Source: a virus (lineage: Duplodnaviria > Heunggongvirae > Uroviricota > Caudoviricetes). From it: a stretch of DNA of 44,708 nt. A program made the translations under genes and the position numbers. How positions within the stretch are numbered: position 1 is the first letter of the stretch; each line of letters starts with the position of its first letter. Shown here piece after piece: positions 4,730 to 15,072 of the stretch. The notes beneath the pieces are model-generated. The model was not told where the DNA came from. It saw only the letters and a list, made by a program, of their open reading frames with translations, and made no database searches. The stretch is from IMG/VR virus record IMGVR_UViG_2541047944_000003, positions 1-44,708 of that record, one strand, 5' to 3'.

Positions 4730-4900
4730 TCACGATCTCCCTTCTGGCGATACATTAACGCCTGCTGCGTGTACATGCGTCTCTGTAACTTGCTCTCCTT
4801 CACTGTGGTTGCAAGTGACATGAATATCTCCTTCGTTACCGATTAATTCTTTCATCTGACGAATGAATTCTTCGTCTGACCAGTTATCTGTAAAACTCAT
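4730..4900 (-). CDS. hypothetical small protein in the kil position (56 aa)
   Basis: ORF starting MSFTDNW, ATGA overlap with the cIII-like stop; positional analogy only. Confidence 0.35.
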   Translation of the reverse strand: MSFTDNWSDEEFIRQMKELIGNEGDIHVTCNHSEGEQVTETHVHAAGVNVSPEGRS

Positions 4901-5067
4901 GGACGGCCTTGTTGTTTCAAAATATCCCAAAGCTTTTCGAGCAAACTTTTCATTCTTGGTTGTTTAAAGTCTGCTCCGGTTAAAATGTTTTTTCGTGAAT
5001 GCTGCACCGATAAAATTGGGTTGAAAGGGCGAACCGATGCCGCCCCTGCAATAGCGAACTGTTGCAT
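4897..5067 (-). CDS. cIII: CIII-like protein (FtsH inhibitor family)
   Basis: MQQFAIAG...LLEKLWDILKQ resembles lambda CIII (MQYAIAGW...LIDILNQ) from memory; AAGGAG RBS before ATG at 5067. Confidence 0.5.
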   Translation of the reverse strand: MQQFAIAGAASVRPFNPILSVQHSRKNILTGADFKQPRMKSLLEKLWDILKQQGRP

Positions 5068-5293
5068 AGGATGCTCCTTCTGTTTGATTGCATAACGAAA
5101 ACGCCTCGAGTGAAGCGTTATTGGTATGCATATAAAAAGGCCATCACATTGGAGGGCAAAAAAGATTTCCAATAATCAGAACAAGTCGGCTCCTGTTTAG
5201 TTACGAGCGACATTGCTCCGTGTATTCACTCGTTGGAATGAATACACAGTGCAGTGTTTATTCTGTTATTTATGCCAAAAATAAAGGCCACTA

Positions 5294-5494
5294 TCAGGCA
5301 GCTTTGTTGTTCTGTTTACCAAGTTCTCTGGCAATCATTGCCGTCGTTCGTATTGCCCATTTATCGACATATTTCCCATCTTCCATTACAGGAAACATTT
5401 CTTCAGGCTTAACCATGCATTCCGATTGCAGCTTGCATCCATTGCATCGTTTGAATTGTCCACACCATTGATTTGTATCAATAGTCGTAGTCAT
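5294..5494 (-). CDS. hypothetical Cys-rich small protein (66 aa)
   Basis: ORF with CxxxxxxCxxC pattern; overlaps upstream mini-ORF stop. Confidence 0.4.
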   Translation of the reverse strand: MTTTIDTNQWCGQFKRCNGCKLQSECMVKPEEMFPVMEDGKYVDKWAIRTTAMIARELGKQNNKAA

Positions 5495-5707
5495 ACGGAT
5501 AGTCCTGGTATTGTTCCATCACATCTTGAGGATGCTCTTCGAACTCTTCAAATTCTTCTTCCATATATCACCTTAAATAGTGGATTGCGGTAGTAAAGAT
5601 TGTGCCTGTCTTTTAACCACATCAGGCTCGGTGGTTCTCGTGTACCCCTACAACGAGAAATCGGATAAACTCTATTCACCCCTACAGAGAGCAAAAGAGA
5701 AACGCCG

Positions 5708-6289
5708 ATGAACAACTCATGGTGGCAGGAACTAATGCATTTTTTCCTGCAAGGAATGACACTTAAACAGTTGATTCATATGCTAATCATCCTGATCATA
5801 TTGATTATTGTTATGCCGGTAAGCGTAAAAGAATGGATAAACCTGCATAATCCAGAAATCCTTCCTCATTACTGGATGTATTACATCCTGTTGTTTTGCG
5901 TTAGCTATGTGCTTAACGGCGTTGTTAATTCCGCTTATCACGCTGTGACTGAAAGAATTGAGGTATTCGCTGCTCAGAAGCGCAAATCTAAAGAAGAAAA
6001 ATATGTGCAAGATTTGTTTGATTCGTTAACTCTTGGAGAAAGAGCGTATTTGGCATTCGCTGTAGCCGCTAATAACCAGCTACAAACGGAAAAGGGCGCT
6101 CATGAATCAATTTCATTGCTCAAAAAAGGACTCCTCGTTCGAAGGCCTCCTGCTGTTGGATATCCTGATACCGACCGTTTCGTTATCCCTGAAAGCTATA
6201 GACATGAGTGCTACATTAGGTTTGCCGGGAAGGCAGACAGCCTTATGGATGAACTTATCGCTCAGGATAAGCATGGCAAAAACAAGTAA
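5708..6289 (+). CDS. sieB: superinfection exclusion protein B-like membrane protein
   Basis: 193-aa protein with two strongly hydrophobic helices; rightward gene embedded in the leftward early operon between N and cIII, as sieB is in lambda. Confidence 0.55.
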   Translation: MNNSWWQELMHFFLQGMTLKQLIHMLIILIILIIVMPVSVKEWINLHNPEILPHYWMYYILLFCVSYVLNGVVNSAYHAVTERIEVFAAQKRKSKEEKYVQDLFDSLTLGERAYLAFAVAANNQLQTEKGAHESISLLKKGLLVRRPPAVGYPDTDRFVIPESYRHECYIRFAGKADSLMDELIAQDKHGKNK

Positions 6290-9817: not shown

Positions 9818-10717
9818 ATGACAAATACAGCAAAAATACTCAACTTCTGCAGAGGTAACTTTGCCAAACAGGAGCGTAATGTGGCAGATCTCGATGATGG
9901 TTACGCCAGACTATCAAATATGCTGCTTGAGGCTTATTCAGGCGCAGATCTGACCAAGCGACAGTTTAAAGTGCTGCTTGCCATTCTGCGTAAAACCTAT
10001 GGATGGAATAAACCAATGGACAGAATCACCGATTCTCAACTTAGCGAGATTACAAAGTTACCCGTCAAACGGTGCAATGAAGCGAAGTTAGAACTCGTCA
10101 GAATGAATATTATCAAGCAGCAAGGCGGCATGTTTGGACCAAATAAAAACATCTCAGAATGGTGTATCCCTCAAAACGAGGGAAAATCCCCTAAAACGAG
10201 GGATAAAACATCCCTCAAATTGGGGGATTGCTATCCCTCAAAACAGGGGGACACAAAAGACACTATTACAAAAGAAAAAAGAAAAGATTATTCGTCAGAG
10301 AATTCTGGCGAATCCTCTGACCAGCCAGAAAACGACCTTTCTGTGGTGAAACCGGATGCTGCAATTCAGAGCGGCAGCAAGTGGGGGACAGCAGAAGACC
10401 TGACCGCCGCAGAATGGATGTTTGACATGGTGAAGACCATCGCGCCATCAGCCAGAAAACCGAATTTTGCAGGGTGGGCTAACGATATCCGCCTGATGCG
10501 TGAACGTGACGGACGTAACCATCGCGACATGTGTGTACTGTTCCGCTGGGCATGCCAGGACAACTTCTGGTCCGGTAACGTGCTGAGCCCGGCCAAACTC
10601 CGCGACAAGTGGACCCAGCTCGAAATCAACCGTAACAAGCAACAGGCAGGTGTGACAGCCTGCAAACCAAAACTCGACCTGACAAACACTGACTGGATTT
10701 ACGGGGTGGATTTATGA
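9818..10717 (+). CDS. O: replication initiator O (lambda-type)
   Basis: Near-identical to lambda O as remembered (MTNTAKILNF...TDWIYGVDL); contains ori iterons. Confidence 0.95.
   Translation: MTNTAKILNFCRGNFAKQERNVADLDDGYARLSNMLLEAYSGADLTKRQFKVLLAILRKTYGWNKPMDRITDSQLSEITKLPVKRCNEAKLELVRMNIIKQQGGMFGPNKNISEWCIPQNEGKSPKTRDKTSLKLGDCYPSKQGDTKDTITKEKRKDYSSENSGESSDQPENDLSVVKPDAAIQSGSKWGTAEDLTAAEWMFDMVKTIAPSARKPNFAGWANDIRLMRERDGRNHRDMCVLFRWACQDNFWSGNVLSPAKLRDKWTQLEINRNKQQAGVTACKPKLDLTNTDWIYGVDL
10166..10290. repeat. ori-lambda iterons (four ~18-bp repeats) plus adjacent AT-rich tract
   Basis: Repeats TCCCTCAAAACGAGGGA / TCCCCTAAAACGAGGGA / TCCCTCAAATTGGGGGA / TCCCTCAAAACAGGGGGA inside O, followed by AAAGAAAAAAGAAAAG. 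Confidence 0.85.
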
Positions 10718-11424
10718 AAAACATCGCCGCACAGATGGTTAATTTTGACCGTGAGCAGATGCGTCGGATCGCCAACAACATGCCGGAACAGTACGACGAA
10801 AAGCCGCAGGTACAGCAGGTAGCGCAGATCATCAACGGTGTGTTCAGCCAGTTACTGGCAACTTTCCCGGCGAGCCTGGCTAACCGTGACCAGAACGAAC
10901 TGAACGAAATCCGCCGCCAGTGGGTGCTGGCTTTTCGGGAAAACGGGATCACCACAATGGAACAGGTTAACGCTGGAATGCGCGTAGCCCGTCGGCAGAA
11001 TCGACCATTCCTGCCATCACCCGGGCAGTTTGTCGCCTGGTGCCGGGAAGAAGCATCCGTTACCGCCGGGCTGCCAAACGCCAGCGAGCTGGTTGATATG
11101 GTTTACGAGTATTGCCGGAAGCGTGGCCTGTATCCGGACGCAGAGTCTTATCCATGGAAATCAAACGCGCACTACTGGTTGGTTACCAACCTGTACCAGA
11201 ACATGCGGGCCAATGCGTTGACTGACGCGGAATTACGGCGCAAGGCTGCCGATGAACTGGCCTGTATGACCGCGCGAATTAACCGTGGTGAGGCGATCCC
11301 TGAACCGGTGAAACAACTTCCTGTCATGGGCGGCAGGCCGCTTAATCGTGTTCAGAGCTTGGAAAAAATTAAACAATTGCGTGCTAAACATGGATTATGT
11401 AGAGGGAAAAGGTTTAGTGGATGA
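10714..11424 (+). CDS. P: replication protein P (DnaB helicase loader)
   Basis: Near-identical to lambda P as remembered up to about residue 205; last ~30 aa differ. Confidence 0.9.
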   Translation: MKNIAAQMVNFDREQMRRIANNMPEQYDEKPQVQQVAQIINGVFSQLLATFPASLANRDQNELNEIRRQWVLAFRENGITTMEQVNAGMRVARRQNRPFLPSPGQFVAWCREEASVTAGLPNASELVDMVYEYCRKRGLYPDAESYPWKSNAHYWLVTNLYQNMRANALTDAELRRKAADELACMTARINRGEAIPEPVKQLPVMGGRPLNRVQSLEKIKQLRAKHGLCRGKRFSG

Positions 11425-11469
11425 AAGTAATGAGGTGATTTCCTTCTCTCCCACACTTCAAAAGATAGA

Positions 11470-11500
11470 GTTTATTATTTGAATTTACTATAATTTACTG
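11470..11500 (+). promoter_or_regulatory. putative promoter of the low-GC cassette
   Basis: Perfect TATAAT at 11488-11493 in AT-rich DNA about 55 bp upstream of the ATG; -35 element not clear. Confidence 0.3.
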
Positions 11501-11547
11501 ATAAAACAAAAGAATTGTAGAGCAATTTTCATTTGAGGATGAAGTAA

Positions 11548-13194
11548 ATGTGTGAAACCTATATTTTTAGGTTCCGTGACCTAGGAAAAAGTGAAGGATT
11601 TACCATCGAACAACACAATAACATTGCTCGCCAAGAAGGGAATGTTTGGTGGGGGTGGTGGGCTAAATCTGGTGAGCGTTTCCCATCACTGGAACTAAAA
11701 AATGCGGCAGAAAAAAATAAACAAATATATTTTTTTGATTCAGGGCGGCTTAAATTTTATACCGCTGTATTAAAGGATACTTGCTCGTCAGCTTTAGGGG
11801 ATATAAAAAAACAATCTCCTAAGGATGGTCGCAGAACCCCAGCATATTATAATGAGAATGAGTTGCTGGGATGGTTAAATGTTTCTGAGATTACAGAAAT
11901 TGATGCTTGTGATATCCTCAGAAAATTCACATATATTCCATTGGATGCATTGTTTGCAGGTAATAAAGATTTAGATGAGCAACTTTTCAACAAAATTGTC
12001 TTTTCTTCAGCTGAATTAAAAAAACAAGATAGAACTATTTGGAAGATTAGACCTGCAAATGATAAAGATTTACAGCATGAGTCATTAGCATCTCATTATG
12101 TTCCTTATAATTTCAGTCGGAAGTATAGCCAAAAAAAAGGGGAGTTTATAATTTGGCTTTCGGATATTCATTTTGATGGCGGAAATGGGAAACATGCATT
12201 TCCGACACAAGATAATGATCAGCTAAAATGTTTATCCTCTCGAGTGGTGGAGTTGGCTGGAAAATATAATAATGGGAGTAAATGTGCTGGGTTGGCTATT
12301 TCAGGTGATTTGACGTGGCAGTCACAGAAAGAGGGATTCAAGCAAGCTTTGAATTTTATCAAAGATGTTAGTTCTTCTCTTAGCCTGACAACGGATGATA
12401 TAATTATTTGTCCTGGGAATCACGATGTAGGTCTGGTTTCTAAAGATGAGTACTTTAAAATCGTGGGTAAGCCTGTAACGGATAAACCATGGAAAATTCT
12501 GGCGGAAAACTACCATAGAGAAAGTAAACTTAATTATATAAAATTTTATCGAGATTTTTTTCAAAGGGAACCTGAAGAAAATTTATCACAAGGAAGGAAA
12601 TTTTTACTAGGTGGCCATAAAGTTGTTGAAATAGCCGCATTGAACTCATGCGTATTACAACAAGTAAAAGATTCATTTTTGGGCATGGGATTTGTCGGTG
12701 AGCAACAACTCAGTGATGTTGCAAAATCTATGGGATGGATGAATGATAGCGGAGGTGATATACTCAAAAAGAAAGGTGTTATAAGAATTGCTATGCTTCA
12801 CCATCACCTAACTTCTATTAATGAAGTTGAAGATGCCTATCTTGATTCAAGATATAGTGTAACATTAGATGCAGAGCGATTATTACGTTGGGTAGTAAGG
12901 CATAAAGTTGATTATATTCTGCATGGTCATATGCACAGAAGTAGTTCTATTACAATAACAAAAAAACTATCTCCGTTAGAACCAGTGACGGATTCAAATC
13001 CTGAACATACATTCCAAATTGTTTCTTTGGGAAGTTCAGGAGTTGTTAGTTCGGAATTGCCAAGTCAGGATTGTGCTAACTATGCATGCGTACTGGATTT
13101 TTCTGGCGAAAAGCTAACTTTTAATTTTTTCAAGCTTGATAAACAGAGCGGAGAAAAAGTGGCGGCTACTTATATTGTTGAAGGTTTATTATGA
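11548..13194 (+). CDS. calcineurin-like metallophosphoesterase with unknown ~190-aa N-terminal domain (548 aa)
   Basis: Ordered motifs SDIHFDGG (DxH), ISGDLTW (GD), CPGNHD (GNHD), MLHHH, LHGHMH (GHxH); GAGGA RBS; AT-rich. Confidence 0.7.
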   Translation: MCETYIFRFRDLGKSEGFTIEQHNNIARQEGNVWWGWWAKSGERFPSLELKNAAEKNKQIYFFDSGRLKFYTAVLKDTCSSALGDIKKQSPKDGRRTPAYYNENELLGWLNVSEITEIDACDILRKFTYIPLDALFAGNKDLDEQLFNKIVFSSAELKKQDRTIWKIRPANDKDLQHESLASHYVPYNFSRKYSQKKGEFIIWLSDIHFDGGNGKHAFPTQDNDQLKCLSSRVVELAGKYNNGSKCAGLAISGDLTWQSQKEGFKQALNFIKDVSSSLSLTTDDIIICPGNHDVGLVSKDEYFKIVGKPVTDKPWKILAENYHRESKLNYIKFYRDFFQREPEENLSQGRKFLLGGHKVVEIAALNSCVLQQVKDSFLGMGFVGEQQLSDVAKSMGWMNDSGGDILKKKGVIRIAMLHHHLTSINEVEDAYLDSRYSVTLDAERLLRWVVRHKVDYILHGHMHRSSSITITKKLSPLEPVTDSNPEHTFQIVSLGSSGVVSSELPSQDCANYACVLDFSGEKLTFNFFKLDKQSGEKVAATYIVEGLL

Positions 13195-14027
13195 AATTAC
13201 TTATTACTGATTTGGATAATACACTGTACGATTGGGTGAGTTTTTACTCCCAGTCATTTAGTGCCATGGCAGAGCAATTATCTAAGGATATTGATGTGCC
13301 TTTGGATACGCTCCTGTCAGAATATAAAACCATTCATCAGAAGTTTGGTAACTCAGAAAAACCATTTGCTACTTTAGAGCTACCATCTGTGATATCTTAC
13401 TTTGGAACTAATGATAAAACGATTTTGCAGGAAAAACTTACTAATGTTTTTCAGGCGTTTAGCACAAAACGTAACCAGACATTAATGTTGTATCCTACTG
13501 TAAAAGAAACGCTGGAATTATTGAAGAAACGGGGGGTAAAAATTGTAGGGCATACTGAAGCTTTGGAGTTTAATTCTTTATATCGTCTGAATAAGCTTGG
13601 TATAATTGATTTTTTTGATCATCTTTATACATTGGAAGATATTCATAATATCCACCCGAATCCCAAAAATGCGAAAAAAATACCTGTGAAGGATGACTTT
13701 GTAATTAGATTGTCCTGCGCTGAGTCAAAGCCAAACCCTAAATTGCTTGAGCACATATGTTCTTTTGAAGGAGTTAGTGTTGAAGATGCGGTATACATTG
13801 GCGATTCTATAACTAAAGATATGTCCATGGCTAAAGCTGTGGGGGTTACTGCTGTTTGGGCTAATTATGGGCGACAGTTTTCACCTGAATTGTGGAAAGT
13901 TTTAGTGAAAATCACACACTGGAAAGATGCAGATGTGGAGAGGGAGGAACAACTTAGAAAAGCATTCTCCAATGTTAGACCTGATTATGTTGTTAATAGT
14001 TTTTCAGAGCTGCTGAATTTGAAATGA
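13191..14027 (+). CDS. HAD-superfamily phosphatase/hydrolase (278 aa)
   Basis: Motif I LITDLDNT (DxDxT), motif IV IGDSITKD; ATGA start/stop overlap with upstream gene. Confidence 0.7.
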   Translation: MKLLITDLDNTLYDWVSFYSQSFSAMAEQLSKDIDVPLDTLLSEYKTIHQKFGNSEKPFATLELPSVISYFGTNDKTILQEKLTNVFQAFSTKRNQTLMLYPTVKETLELLKKRGVKIVGHTEALEFNSLYRLNKLGIIDFFDHLYTLEDIHNIHPNPKNAKKIPVKDDFVIRLSCAESKPNPKLLEHICSFEGVSVEDAVYIGDSITKDMSMAKAVGVTAVWANYGRQFSPELWKVLVKITHWKDADVEREEQLRKAFSNVRPDYVVNSFSELLNLK

Positions 14028-14559
14028 GCATGTGCAGGCTCTAAATTTTTAATGATTTGGAGCTCTTTATGGGGTTGTTTTTTAATTTGGTGATTTTTCC
14101 CAATGTTGAGATGTTGTTGAACTCGTGAGTTATATTTAACGTATTTGATGTTAATGAAATAATAATATCACAATGCAAGCTCCCTGCATTTTCTTGTAGG
14201 GGCATGCTATTTAGAATAAGCTTATGGTCAAGATTAAATTATGAACTGCTATTTTGATGGGCTGTTTATTATCTTGGGGTTGTTTTCTTTTTGAGTTTTT
14301 ATGGTTGAGATGAACGTTTGTTAAATGTTTTAATACCCTTTGTTACAACATTCATCATTTTACTGTTTACTATCATGATGTTAGACTGAAATTATTAATT
14401 TGTGAAACTAATCATCTAATTTAACAATACAAAATTGAGATCCAATAATCAAAATGCCATAATAATGTCATCGGAGCCTGAACAACTCCGGTGACTTCTG
14501 CGCTAAACGGGGACGTTTATGCGCACACACAATCCAAACTCACTTCTTCCGTCACAGAT

Positions 14560-14583
14560 GCAGAAATGCACCTGCGTTTTTTT
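14560..14583 (+). terminator. weak intrinsic terminator candidate upstream of ybcN
   Basis: Short GCAG...CTGC stem followed by GTTTTTTT. Confidence 0.3.
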
Positions 14584-14616
14584 GCATCCAGCGTTTGACC
14601 TCTGCGGAGGTGAATC

Positions 14617-15072
14617 GTGAACCTCCTACAAGATGGCATCAAATTGCATCGTGGTAACTTCACCGCTATCGGTCAGCAGATCCAGCCTTATCTGGAGGAC
14701 GGCAAATGCTTTCGCATGGTGCTTAAACCGTGGCGCGAGAGACGCAGTCTTTCCCAGAATGCACTTAGCCACATGTGGTACAGCGAAATCAGTGAATACC
14801 TCATAAGCAGGGGGAAATCGTTCGCTACTGCAGCATGGGTAAAAGATGCTCTCAAACACACTTATCTCGGTTATGAAACCAAAGAACTGGTTGATGTCGT
14901 AACCGGTGAAATCACCACCATTCAGTCATTACGTCATACCTCCGATCTCGATACCGGAGAGATGTATGTCTTCCTGTGTAAGGTTGAAGCCTGGGCGATG
15001 AATATTGGCTGCCACCTGACTATTCCGCAGAGCTGCGAGTTCCAGCTGCTGCGCGACAAGCAGGAGGCGTAA
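14617..15072 (+). CDS. ybcN: YbcN-like protein (DLP12 nin-region protein)
   Basis: 151-aa product matching DLP12 YbcN as remembered; GTG start after GGAGG. Confidence 0.6.

Follow-up and report, generated by a model that had tools for sequence, protein, structure and literature searches.

The non-coding interval between a Metis defence operon and ybcN in a lambdoid prophage is probably an ordinary moron flank joined to the standard leader block

The window analysed here, a 44,708-nt stretch of DNA from a virus of the Caudoviricetes (IMG/VR record IMGVR_UViG_2541047944_000003, positions 1 to 44,708), has the gene neighbours of DLP12 and phage 82: the replication protein gene P (10714-11424) on the left, and orf33, ybcN, ninE, ybcO, rusA and a porin gene on the right. 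Between P and orf33/ybcN sits a foreign low-GC block with two genes, misA and misB, followed by a long stretch of DNA without a gene (Table 1). Because the homology shared with the lambdoid backbone stops at 11350-11362, within the 3' end of P, and resumes at a ragged edge of 14429-14475, the block can be placed at about 11363-14428. Its GC content of 0.30-0.41, against 0.50-0.58 outside, forms a trough that coincides with these limits.

Table 1. Features in and around the interval 14028-14616, in window coordinates.
Feature	Positions	Strand	Description
misA	11548-13194	+	PUA-like plus calcineurin-like phosphoesterase, 548 aa
misB	13191-14027	+	HAD phosphatase, 278 aa
AT-rich 3' flank ("tail") of the lambdoid Metis cassette	14028-14428	.	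no gene or family match
Stem-loop after misB	14037-14064	+	11-bp stem, ten bases past the misB stop; then CTTTAT and a T-rich tract
19-codon ORF	14069-14128	+	MGLFFNLVIFPNVEMLLNS; GGAG 6 nt upstream
Motif copy 1	14071-14113	+	GGGGTTGTTTT, 23 nt, GTTGAGATG; box 1 lies within the T-rich tract 3' of the stem-loop
Second stem-loop	14175-14207	+	lineage-specific; z -3.5 in the window
Motif copy 2	14276-14312	+	GGGGTTGTTTT, 17 nt, GTTGAGATG; local structure not significant (z -0.55)
Conserved lambdoid backbone upstream of ybcN/ninB	14429-14616	+	nucleotide homology
Sigma-70-like promoter match	14435-14463	+	TTGAGA, 17 nt, TG-CATAAT
10-bp inverted repeat / hairpin	14467-14495	+	conserved CCTGAACAA loop; z -4.1
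orf33-type 33-codon ORF	14519-14620	+	stop overlaps the ybcN GTG start (14617)
Terminator-like hairpin	14556-14588	+	T7 run; inside orf33

A foreign block of deviating base composition between conserved backbone genes is the mark of a lambdoid moron. In the moron concept of Juhala, Hendrix and co-workers, such an accessory block reportedly carries its own promoter and terminator. The present block resembles this picture in its position between P and ybcN/ninB, in a promoter-like TATAAT (11489-11494) within its 185-nt upstream flank, and in the stem-loop and T-rich tract of its 3' flank, these being sequence matches. It differs in the length of that 3' flank, unusually long at 401 nt compared with about 4-44 nt in HN257, PhiR26_1 and K-12. 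The same slot is occupied by ren in lambda, by ybcK/ybcL/ybcM in K-12, by a SIR2 gene in strain H3 and by other genes elsewhere. Between the last gene of the slot and the backbone block lie about 4 to about 540 nt, the upper value belonging to the SIR2 moron of H3, and this range shows that a long tail is specific to its cargo rather than a requirement of the slot.

The cargo itself has a clear identity. The product of misA contains the Pfam domains PF24405 and PF00149 and scores 531 bits against NCBIfam NF053862 "anti-phage phosphoesterase" (cutoff 420), and that of misB falls into HAD families. A PUA-like plus calcineurin-like phosphoesterase protein followed by an HAD phosphatase is the arrangement that characterizes type I Metis (bioRxiv 10.1101/2025.11.05.686725), also described as PUA-Cal-HAD (PMC12871103). 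PADLOC matches the cassette as Hydrolase (4e-57), RefSeq uses the names misA and misB in one sister genome, and the aromatic motif VWWGWW at residues 33-38 of the translated misA corresponds to a motif described for PUA-Cal-HAD (PMC12871103). Judged by domain content and family score, misA and misB form the anti-phage operon known as type I Metis or PUA-Cal-HAD, a two-gene abortive-infection system whose trigger is m6-dAMP (bioRxiv 10.1101/2025.11.05.686725; PMC12871103). The likeness lies in the two genes directly upstream of our interval, which have the defining domains and pass the NCBI curated cutoff; the difference is that published systems are two-gene operons and that the tested E. coli E308 locus has other downstream sequence. 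Since Metis operons from other strains defend on their own with different downstream DNA (as reported in these papers; locus E308), the tail is no required part of the system, and the searched portions of the Metis and PUA-Cal-HAD papers (bioRxiv 10.1101/2025.11.05.686725; PMC12871103) mention no downstream non-coding element. The tail is outside the described Metis system.

A first-pass annotation had read 14028-14616 as some 590 bp of AT-rich, non-coding DNA belonging to the inserted cassette. Much of this description survives for the left part of the interval. Neither strand of 14028-14616 has an ORF that reaches 60 aa, the longest being 54 aa (14041-14205, minus strand), 48, 35 and 33 aa, and 14028-14428 is both AT-rich (GC 0.30-0.33) and seen only together with the cassette. 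Farther right the description fails: GC is 0.44-0.50 in segments covering 14400-14849, the last 188 bp are common lambdoid backbone, and a 33-codon ORF is annotated there by RefSeq and in the phage 82 entry X92588. What had been taken as one unit is instead two pieces, a cassette flank (14028-14428) and a segment of backbone (14429-14616).

The backbone piece matches at least 2819 of 5426 complete E. coli genomes, including the DLP12 prophage of K-12, at 80-96% identity, and also phage 82, HK639, phi80 and others. Within it, 14447-14614 is 94% identical to positions 62-229 of X92588, an entry that annotates a putative -35/-10, an inverted repeat, the orf33 ribosome-binding site, orf33 and the start of orf151 (ninB). 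Alongside this homology, the window has the inverted repeat, the 33-codon ORF and the hairpin with a T run of a lambdoid ybcN/ninB leader. On its nucleotide homology, then, 14429-14616 is a member of the known phage 82 / DLP12 leader block and not of the cassette; no difference of substance sets it apart, and in K-12 DLP12 too the block precedes ybcN. A published function for the leader block was not found, and a literature search for ylcH gave unrelated matches only.

Several elements within the leader can be aligned with those of other phages. The fold of a 190-nt backbone segment has a z of -3.6, and the -10 of the sigma-70-like match corresponds by position to the annotated putative -10 of phage 82. 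When ten lambdoid sequences are aligned over the inverted repeat, compensatory changes occur at 4 of its 10 pairs, and pairing holds in 95% of cells; phage 82 labels this repeat a "possible regulator-binding site", and the phi80 annotation places an inverted repeat, IR4, in this region as well. The orf33-type ORF has no NCBIfam family, and in the HK639/phi80 group the frame of its upstream half is not conserved. The weak terminator-like hairpin that had been noted before ybcN is indeed present inside this ORF. Its block is nearly invariant among lambdoid phages, even in those that have not kept the orf33 frame, with 6 of 13 pairs never varying and none covarying, and conservation here looks to be at the nucleotide rather than the protein level.

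The tail has a much narrower distribution. It matches at least 12 of 5426 complete E. coli genomes (8 of the 12 listed are one bovine clone), at least 5 IMG/VR contigs and at least 1 metagenome contig. Carriers of the cassette include E. coli FHI_NMBU_03 and OkiPb strains. All matches listed have the arrangement P-misA-misB-tail-orf33 at 97-99% identity; a search for homologous intergenic regions, which had been suggested with the first-pass annotation, finds the tail only downstream of the same misB among these matches. It is absent from INPHARED phages and PLSDB plasmids (blastn 'distant'), and the flanks of 80 other Metis loci contain nothing similar. The flank search used blastn with word size 7 and tblastx against 83 loci, 81 of them Metis, and its sole match was the sister allele.

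Three tail alleles occur in the collections. Compared with the common sister allele, the tail of the window differs over its 401 nt by 8 substitutions (2.0%) and two 1-nt indels. In the 2484 coding nt of misA plus misB there are 9 synonymous and 6 non-synonymous changes, and in the 123 nt of upstream intergenic DNA (the promoter region) there are none. Because the divergence of the tail, with its indels, is close to the synonymous rate of misAB (about 1.5% per site, a rough estimate), the tail as a whole appears to evolve about neutrally, and purifying selection may act on short elements within it (n=3 alleles). Four of the substitutions fall in the first 90 nt: two keep pairing in a stem, one is synonymous and one changes V to I in the 19-codon ORF. 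All four are "tolerable", which is weakly compatible with some constraint. The plus strand of the tail has an AT skew of -0.16 to -0.22 and a positive GC skew, and a Rho-loading (rut) role is unlikely because G exceeds C over the first ~250 nt.

Two local hairpins stand out in the folding of the tail, the first being the stem-loop directly after misB. Its 68-nt fold has a free energy of -18.3 kcal/mol (z -3.9), and after CTTTAT comes GGGGTTGTTTTTT, the first box of motif copy 1. Both stem substitutions in the sister allele (n=2) preserve pairing, one turning U.G into C-G and the other G-C into G.U. The E308-type locus, a second E. coli Metis lineage at 80% nucleotide identity that lies beside a Hachiman system, and the Buttiauxella locus both lose blast homology just before the misB stop, and both have a stem-loop at the same place after that stop, also with a trailing CTTTAT. 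RNAalifold on four sequences, which amount effectively to two independent lineages, gives 11 pairs with 2 compensatory changes, 4 one-sided changes and none broken. At seven further loci, from more distant Metis relatives, a strong hairpin lies within ~90 nt of the misB stop, and by eye these hairpins look like intrinsic terminators.

A conserved position at the operon end and pairing kept among relatives, two signs by which a terminator may be recognized, are thus both found at 14037-14083. The stem is AU-rich with 3 G-C pairs, and the T tract is interrupted (CTTTATGGGGTTGTTTTTT; tail CUUUAUGGGGUUGUUUUUU). A scan for consensus intrinsic terminators leaves 14037-14083 of the window uncalled but calls its E308-type counterpart. 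Like the terminators of other Metis loci, the element lies some 10-90 nt past the misB stop and consists of a stem-loop and then a T-rich stretch; its stem is nearest to the E308-type, with which it shares CTTTAT, and is unlike the GC-rich canonical ones. From position and pairing, 14037-14083 is most likely the misAB operon terminator or a 3'-end hairpin. The second stem-loop is bulged in the window, and in sister alleles an extra G gives a perfect 10-bp stem (z -4.7); the scan flags it as terminator-like, with a weak T tail. Farther on, the folds of 14255-14330 and 14330-14430 do not surpass those of shuffles.

The first-pass annotation had offered three functional readings of the interval: a small RNA locus, a set of repeated protein-binding sites or the remnant of a decayed gene. 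According to the first, in its fuller form, the tail would give rise to a small RNA, to a 19-aa hydrophobic peptide (14069-14128) or to both, for example as a type I toxin-antitoxin-like pair or as a 3' UTR-derived sRNA. This would fit with the GGAG 6 nt before the ATG, with the synonymous and conservative nature of the two substitutions in the ORF, with promoter-like sites on the minus strand (14231-14204 and 14406-14357) and with the two stable hairpins of the tail. The searches do not bear it out. Covariance models of Rfam 15 have no match at gathering score anywhere in the window, and at E<=5 the sole match in 13900-14700 is a chance snoRNA (18.8 bits; gathering score 45). Taken whole, the tail folds weakly better than shuffles on the plus strand (z -2.0) and no better on the minus strand (z -0.9), and it has 1-nt indels and near-neutral divergence.

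The peptide fares no better. The 3' arm of the conserved stem explains the GGAG, the ATG is ATA in the E308-type flank, and the translation has a hydrophobic run of just about 9 residues, includes Pro, Asn and Glu, and has no protein match. We regard the 19-codon ORF as spurious, and also the 54-aa minus-strand ORF, which keeps neither its ATG nor its stop in sister alleles and has no homologues. Sib/Ibs loci are repeated type I toxin-antitoxin loci, and they resemble the tail in having units of a few hundred bp repeated in a non-coding gap, with a possible hydrophobic ORF of about 19 aa. They differ in that the tail has no Rfam Sib match, its peptide does not form a transmembrane helix, the related flank does not keep the start of the ORF, and copy 2 has an in-frame stop. 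In other words, what would identify a type I toxin-antitoxin locus is missing here, namely a full hydrophobic helix in the 19-aa ORF, a conserved ATG, a minus-strand fold beyond that of shuffles and an Rfam match. A small RNA or peptide is in our judgement highly improbable.

The tail could also be what remains of a third cassette gene, for example one for a small membrane protein. The T-rich plus strand, with the skews given above, would suit such an origin, as would hydrophobic stretches in frame +3 and the frameshifting indels that separate the alleles. However, hydrophobic translations are expected from a T-rich composition alone, and the Metis systems of this type that are known consist of two genes. 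Translated in all six frames, the tail matches nothing in plasmids and phages (tblastn, E<=1) or among 5.8 billion proteins (E<=0.1), and the tblastx comparison with the other Metis flanks is equally empty. We consider a decayed gene very unlikely.

The remaining reading concerns the duplicated motif. Both of its boxes do occur twice, as had been described, in copies 205 bp apart, except that copy 2 starts at 14276 and not at 14277: GGGGTTGTTTT starts at 14071 and again at 14276, GTTGAGATG starts at 14105 and again at 14304, and neither has a further occurrence in the 44.7-kb window. Allowing 1 mismatch adds a single unrelated match for the 11-mer in the window, and a search with mismatches finds the motif neither in the misA promoter region nor in the rest of the window. 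Chance was assessed with 1000 dinucleotide shuffles of 14028-14430 (self-alignment on a subset of 300). An exact direct repeat of at least 11 nt arises in 12% of shuffles, and an 11-mer pair with a shared 9-mer no more than 30 nt after each in 1.2%. In self-alignment the top score is 24 (14030-14113 with 14224-14312), where shuffles score 17.3 +/- 2.5 and 1.3% reach 24.

Self-comparison, proposed at the outset as a check on the repeat, gives a divided answer. In the window the repeat is nominally above chance (p ~0.01, uncorrected for its having been picked in a scan of the whole window), but in the common sister allele it is not significant: the best self-alignment there has a score of 19, a value that shuffles of the window's own tail also give. 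Copy 1 reads GGGGTTATTTT in every other allele, and ATTGAGATG in all but one. We conclude that the motif repeat is above chance only marginally.

One explanation for these similarities is that the copies go back to a true old tandem duplication in which the 3' flank of Metis, stem-loop included, was repeated as a unit of about 205 bp, and that copy 2 has since become degenerate and functionless. The self-alignment reaches well past both boxes, with the score given above, and the boxes, spaced 33 and 27 nt apart, are in the same reading register. The E308-type 3' flank, moreover, aligns best with the copy-2 region, at 14222-14273 (TTATGGT..CAAGAT..TTTATTATC), with a score of 17, compared with 14 for copy 1 (p ~0.1). 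This E308 similarity, however, is suggestive without reaching significance (p 0.04-0.27, depending on the search space), the self-alignment of the common allele is not significant, and the two copy-1 substitutions, at 14077 and 14105, are unpolarised for want of an outgroup. There is also an ascertainment bias, as the finding was chosen for its repeat. We hold the duplication to be a possible but tentative history, at somewhat less than even odds. It overlaps our preferred explanation of the interval and differs from it only in taking the repeat as real history rather than chance.

Alternatively, the copies might be paired operator- or iteron-like sites for a phage or host regulator of nin/Q read-through or of Metis expression. 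Two collinear copies 205 bp apart, or about 20 helical turns, with a nominal p of ~0.01, in a region where promoter-like sites exceed those in shuffles (7 against 2.6), would be compatible with such a role. The comparison among alleles speaks against it, as both copy-1 boxes are mutated in the common allele and in most sister alleles, and neither the misA promoter nor any other part of the window has a further copy. The boxes are without dyad symmetry, and the cassette encodes MisA and MisB only, with no regulator gene. A degenerate scan of IMG/VR for the composite motif returned the same cassette and three unrelated GC-rich matches, roughly the number expected by chance on an approximate estimate, and Metis works without the window's tail DNA. 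Operators or iterons would be expected to be conserved among relatives, to recur at promoters and to have a cognate DNA-binding protein in the cassette; here the copies are not conserved, no further copies lie at promoters and no such protein is encoded. We give binding sites scant credence.

A more speculative reading gives the tail an active role. It may yield a 3' UTR-derived sRNA or a micro-peptide from 14069 that tunes Metis toxicity, or the motif pair may bind a factor that gates read-through. This is a very long shot. If it were true in its last form, with a factor gating read-through from a constitutively expressed defence operon into nin/Q, immunity would be coupled to prophage induction.

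The explanation that we prefer, with a probability of roughly 70%, is that 14028-14616 consists of two unrelated non-coding pieces: the captured 3' flank of Metis, in which the first ~60 nt end the transcript and the remainder is unconstrained, and the standard ybcN/ninB leader, the motif being an eroded duplication or chance. We hypothesize that 14028-14428 entered the prophage as the 3' flank of the misA-misB defence moron, and that the moron took the place of ~11363-14428 in a DLP12-like lambdoid prophage, between P and orf33/ybcN. The misAB transcript would be made in the lysogen from the moron's own putative promoter, and the stem-loop and T-rich tract in the first ~60 nt of the tail would terminate it or stabilise its 3' end. 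Such termination would probably help to keep the transcript out of the nin/Q region. The second, lineage-specific stem-loop would come next, and the other ~300 bp of the tail would be AT-rich DNA without constraint. Within it, the duplicated motif would be either the worn trace of an old tandem duplication of ~200 bp of the 3' flank or a chance likeness in T-rich DNA, and whichever its origin it would not be maintained by selection. The leader at 14429-14616 would then follow, with its promoter-like site, covarying inverted repeat, orf33 mini-ORF and terminator-like hairpin.

Seen in this way, the interval is an ordinary moron flank joined to lambdoid backbone. The analysis removes a candidate small-RNA or binding-site locus, and the interval itself matters little; the gap is the junction of a known defence moron (Metis / PUA-Cal-HAD) and a standard lambdoid backbone. 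Its value lies in what it says of its neighbours. The conserved stem-loop after misB is a probable marker for where the Metis operon has its 3' end and could serve as a guide for minimal functional clones. The moron can now be delimited exactly, at ~11363-14428, with the replaced 3' end of P included. Finally, the slot between P and ninB in prophages of the DLP12/82 type, which holds Metis here and SIR2 in H3, provides evidence for a recurrent landing site of defence genes.

The cassette with the HAD gene is a type I Metis (MisA/MisB) operon, the PUA-Cal-HAD anti-phage system published in 2025-2026 (bioRxiv 10.1101/2025.11.05.686725; PMC12871103), and it is carried as a moron inside the DLP12/82-like prophage. 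This lambdoid allele shares only ~80% nucleotide identity with the chromosomal allele of the second E. coli lineage (E308-type), which adjoins a Hachiman system. On the left, common lambdoid homology ends within gene P, and so the last ~20 codons of P are part of the inserted block. In other words, sequence comparison indicates that P received its new C-terminus with the moron.

The E308-type Metis operon is followed by a ~655-bp gap without an ORF and then by hamA of the Hachiman system. This gap and the AT-rich tail downstream of misB in the window have a stem-loop in common, but their remaining sequence is unrelated. A short conserved string, CCCCACCAC.. CATTAA, lies ~30-60 nt past the misB terminator in L111, L113, L114 and L115, distant prophage-borne Metis loci that all have it just 3' of the terminator. 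This string could be a sequence of the junction or attachment type.

Upstream of orf33 (33 codons) and ybcN lies an inverted repeat whose loop, CCTGAACAA, looks invariant while its stem covaries in alignment A4 of lambdoid sequences, a comparison that took in phage 82, DLP12, HK639, KO-TP1, CobraSix, HK225 and phi80. Judged from this alignment, the repeat is a conserved structured element. Further along, a ~35-nt block, GTCACAGATGCAGAAATGCACCTGCG.TTTT.TGCAT, hardly varies between distant lambdoid phages, although these do not preserve the orf33 reading frame on its upstream side. The conservation looks nucleotide-level rather than protein-level, and the block is possibly a tR2-like terminator or binding site. 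The TGA stop of orf33 overlaps the GTG start of ybcN (GTGA), which suggests translational coupling of this mini-ORF to ybcN.

Features of the window and of the comparison loci
Feature	Locus	Coordinates
End of common lambdoid homology	window (3' end of gene P, 11350-11424)	11350-11362
Metis cassette	window	11548-14027
Inverted repeat	window	14467-14495
Conserved ~35-nt block	window	14553-14590
orf33/ybcN overlap	window	14617-14620
ORF-less gap 3' of E308-type Metis	L083 (E. coli E308)	5554-6208
ORF-less gap 3' of E308-type Metis	L003 (Buttiauxella)	4838-5492
Slot cargo: SIR2-family gene + ~540-bp non-coding tail	L091 (E. coli H3, NZ_CP010167.1)	1-1800
Slot cargo: ybcK/ybcL/ybcM	L093 (K-12)	
Slot cargo: ren	L090 (lambda)	

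Among the prophages compared (L090, L091 and L093), the cargo between P and orf33/ninB differs from one to the next. This slot looks like a hotspot for defence and accessory genes.
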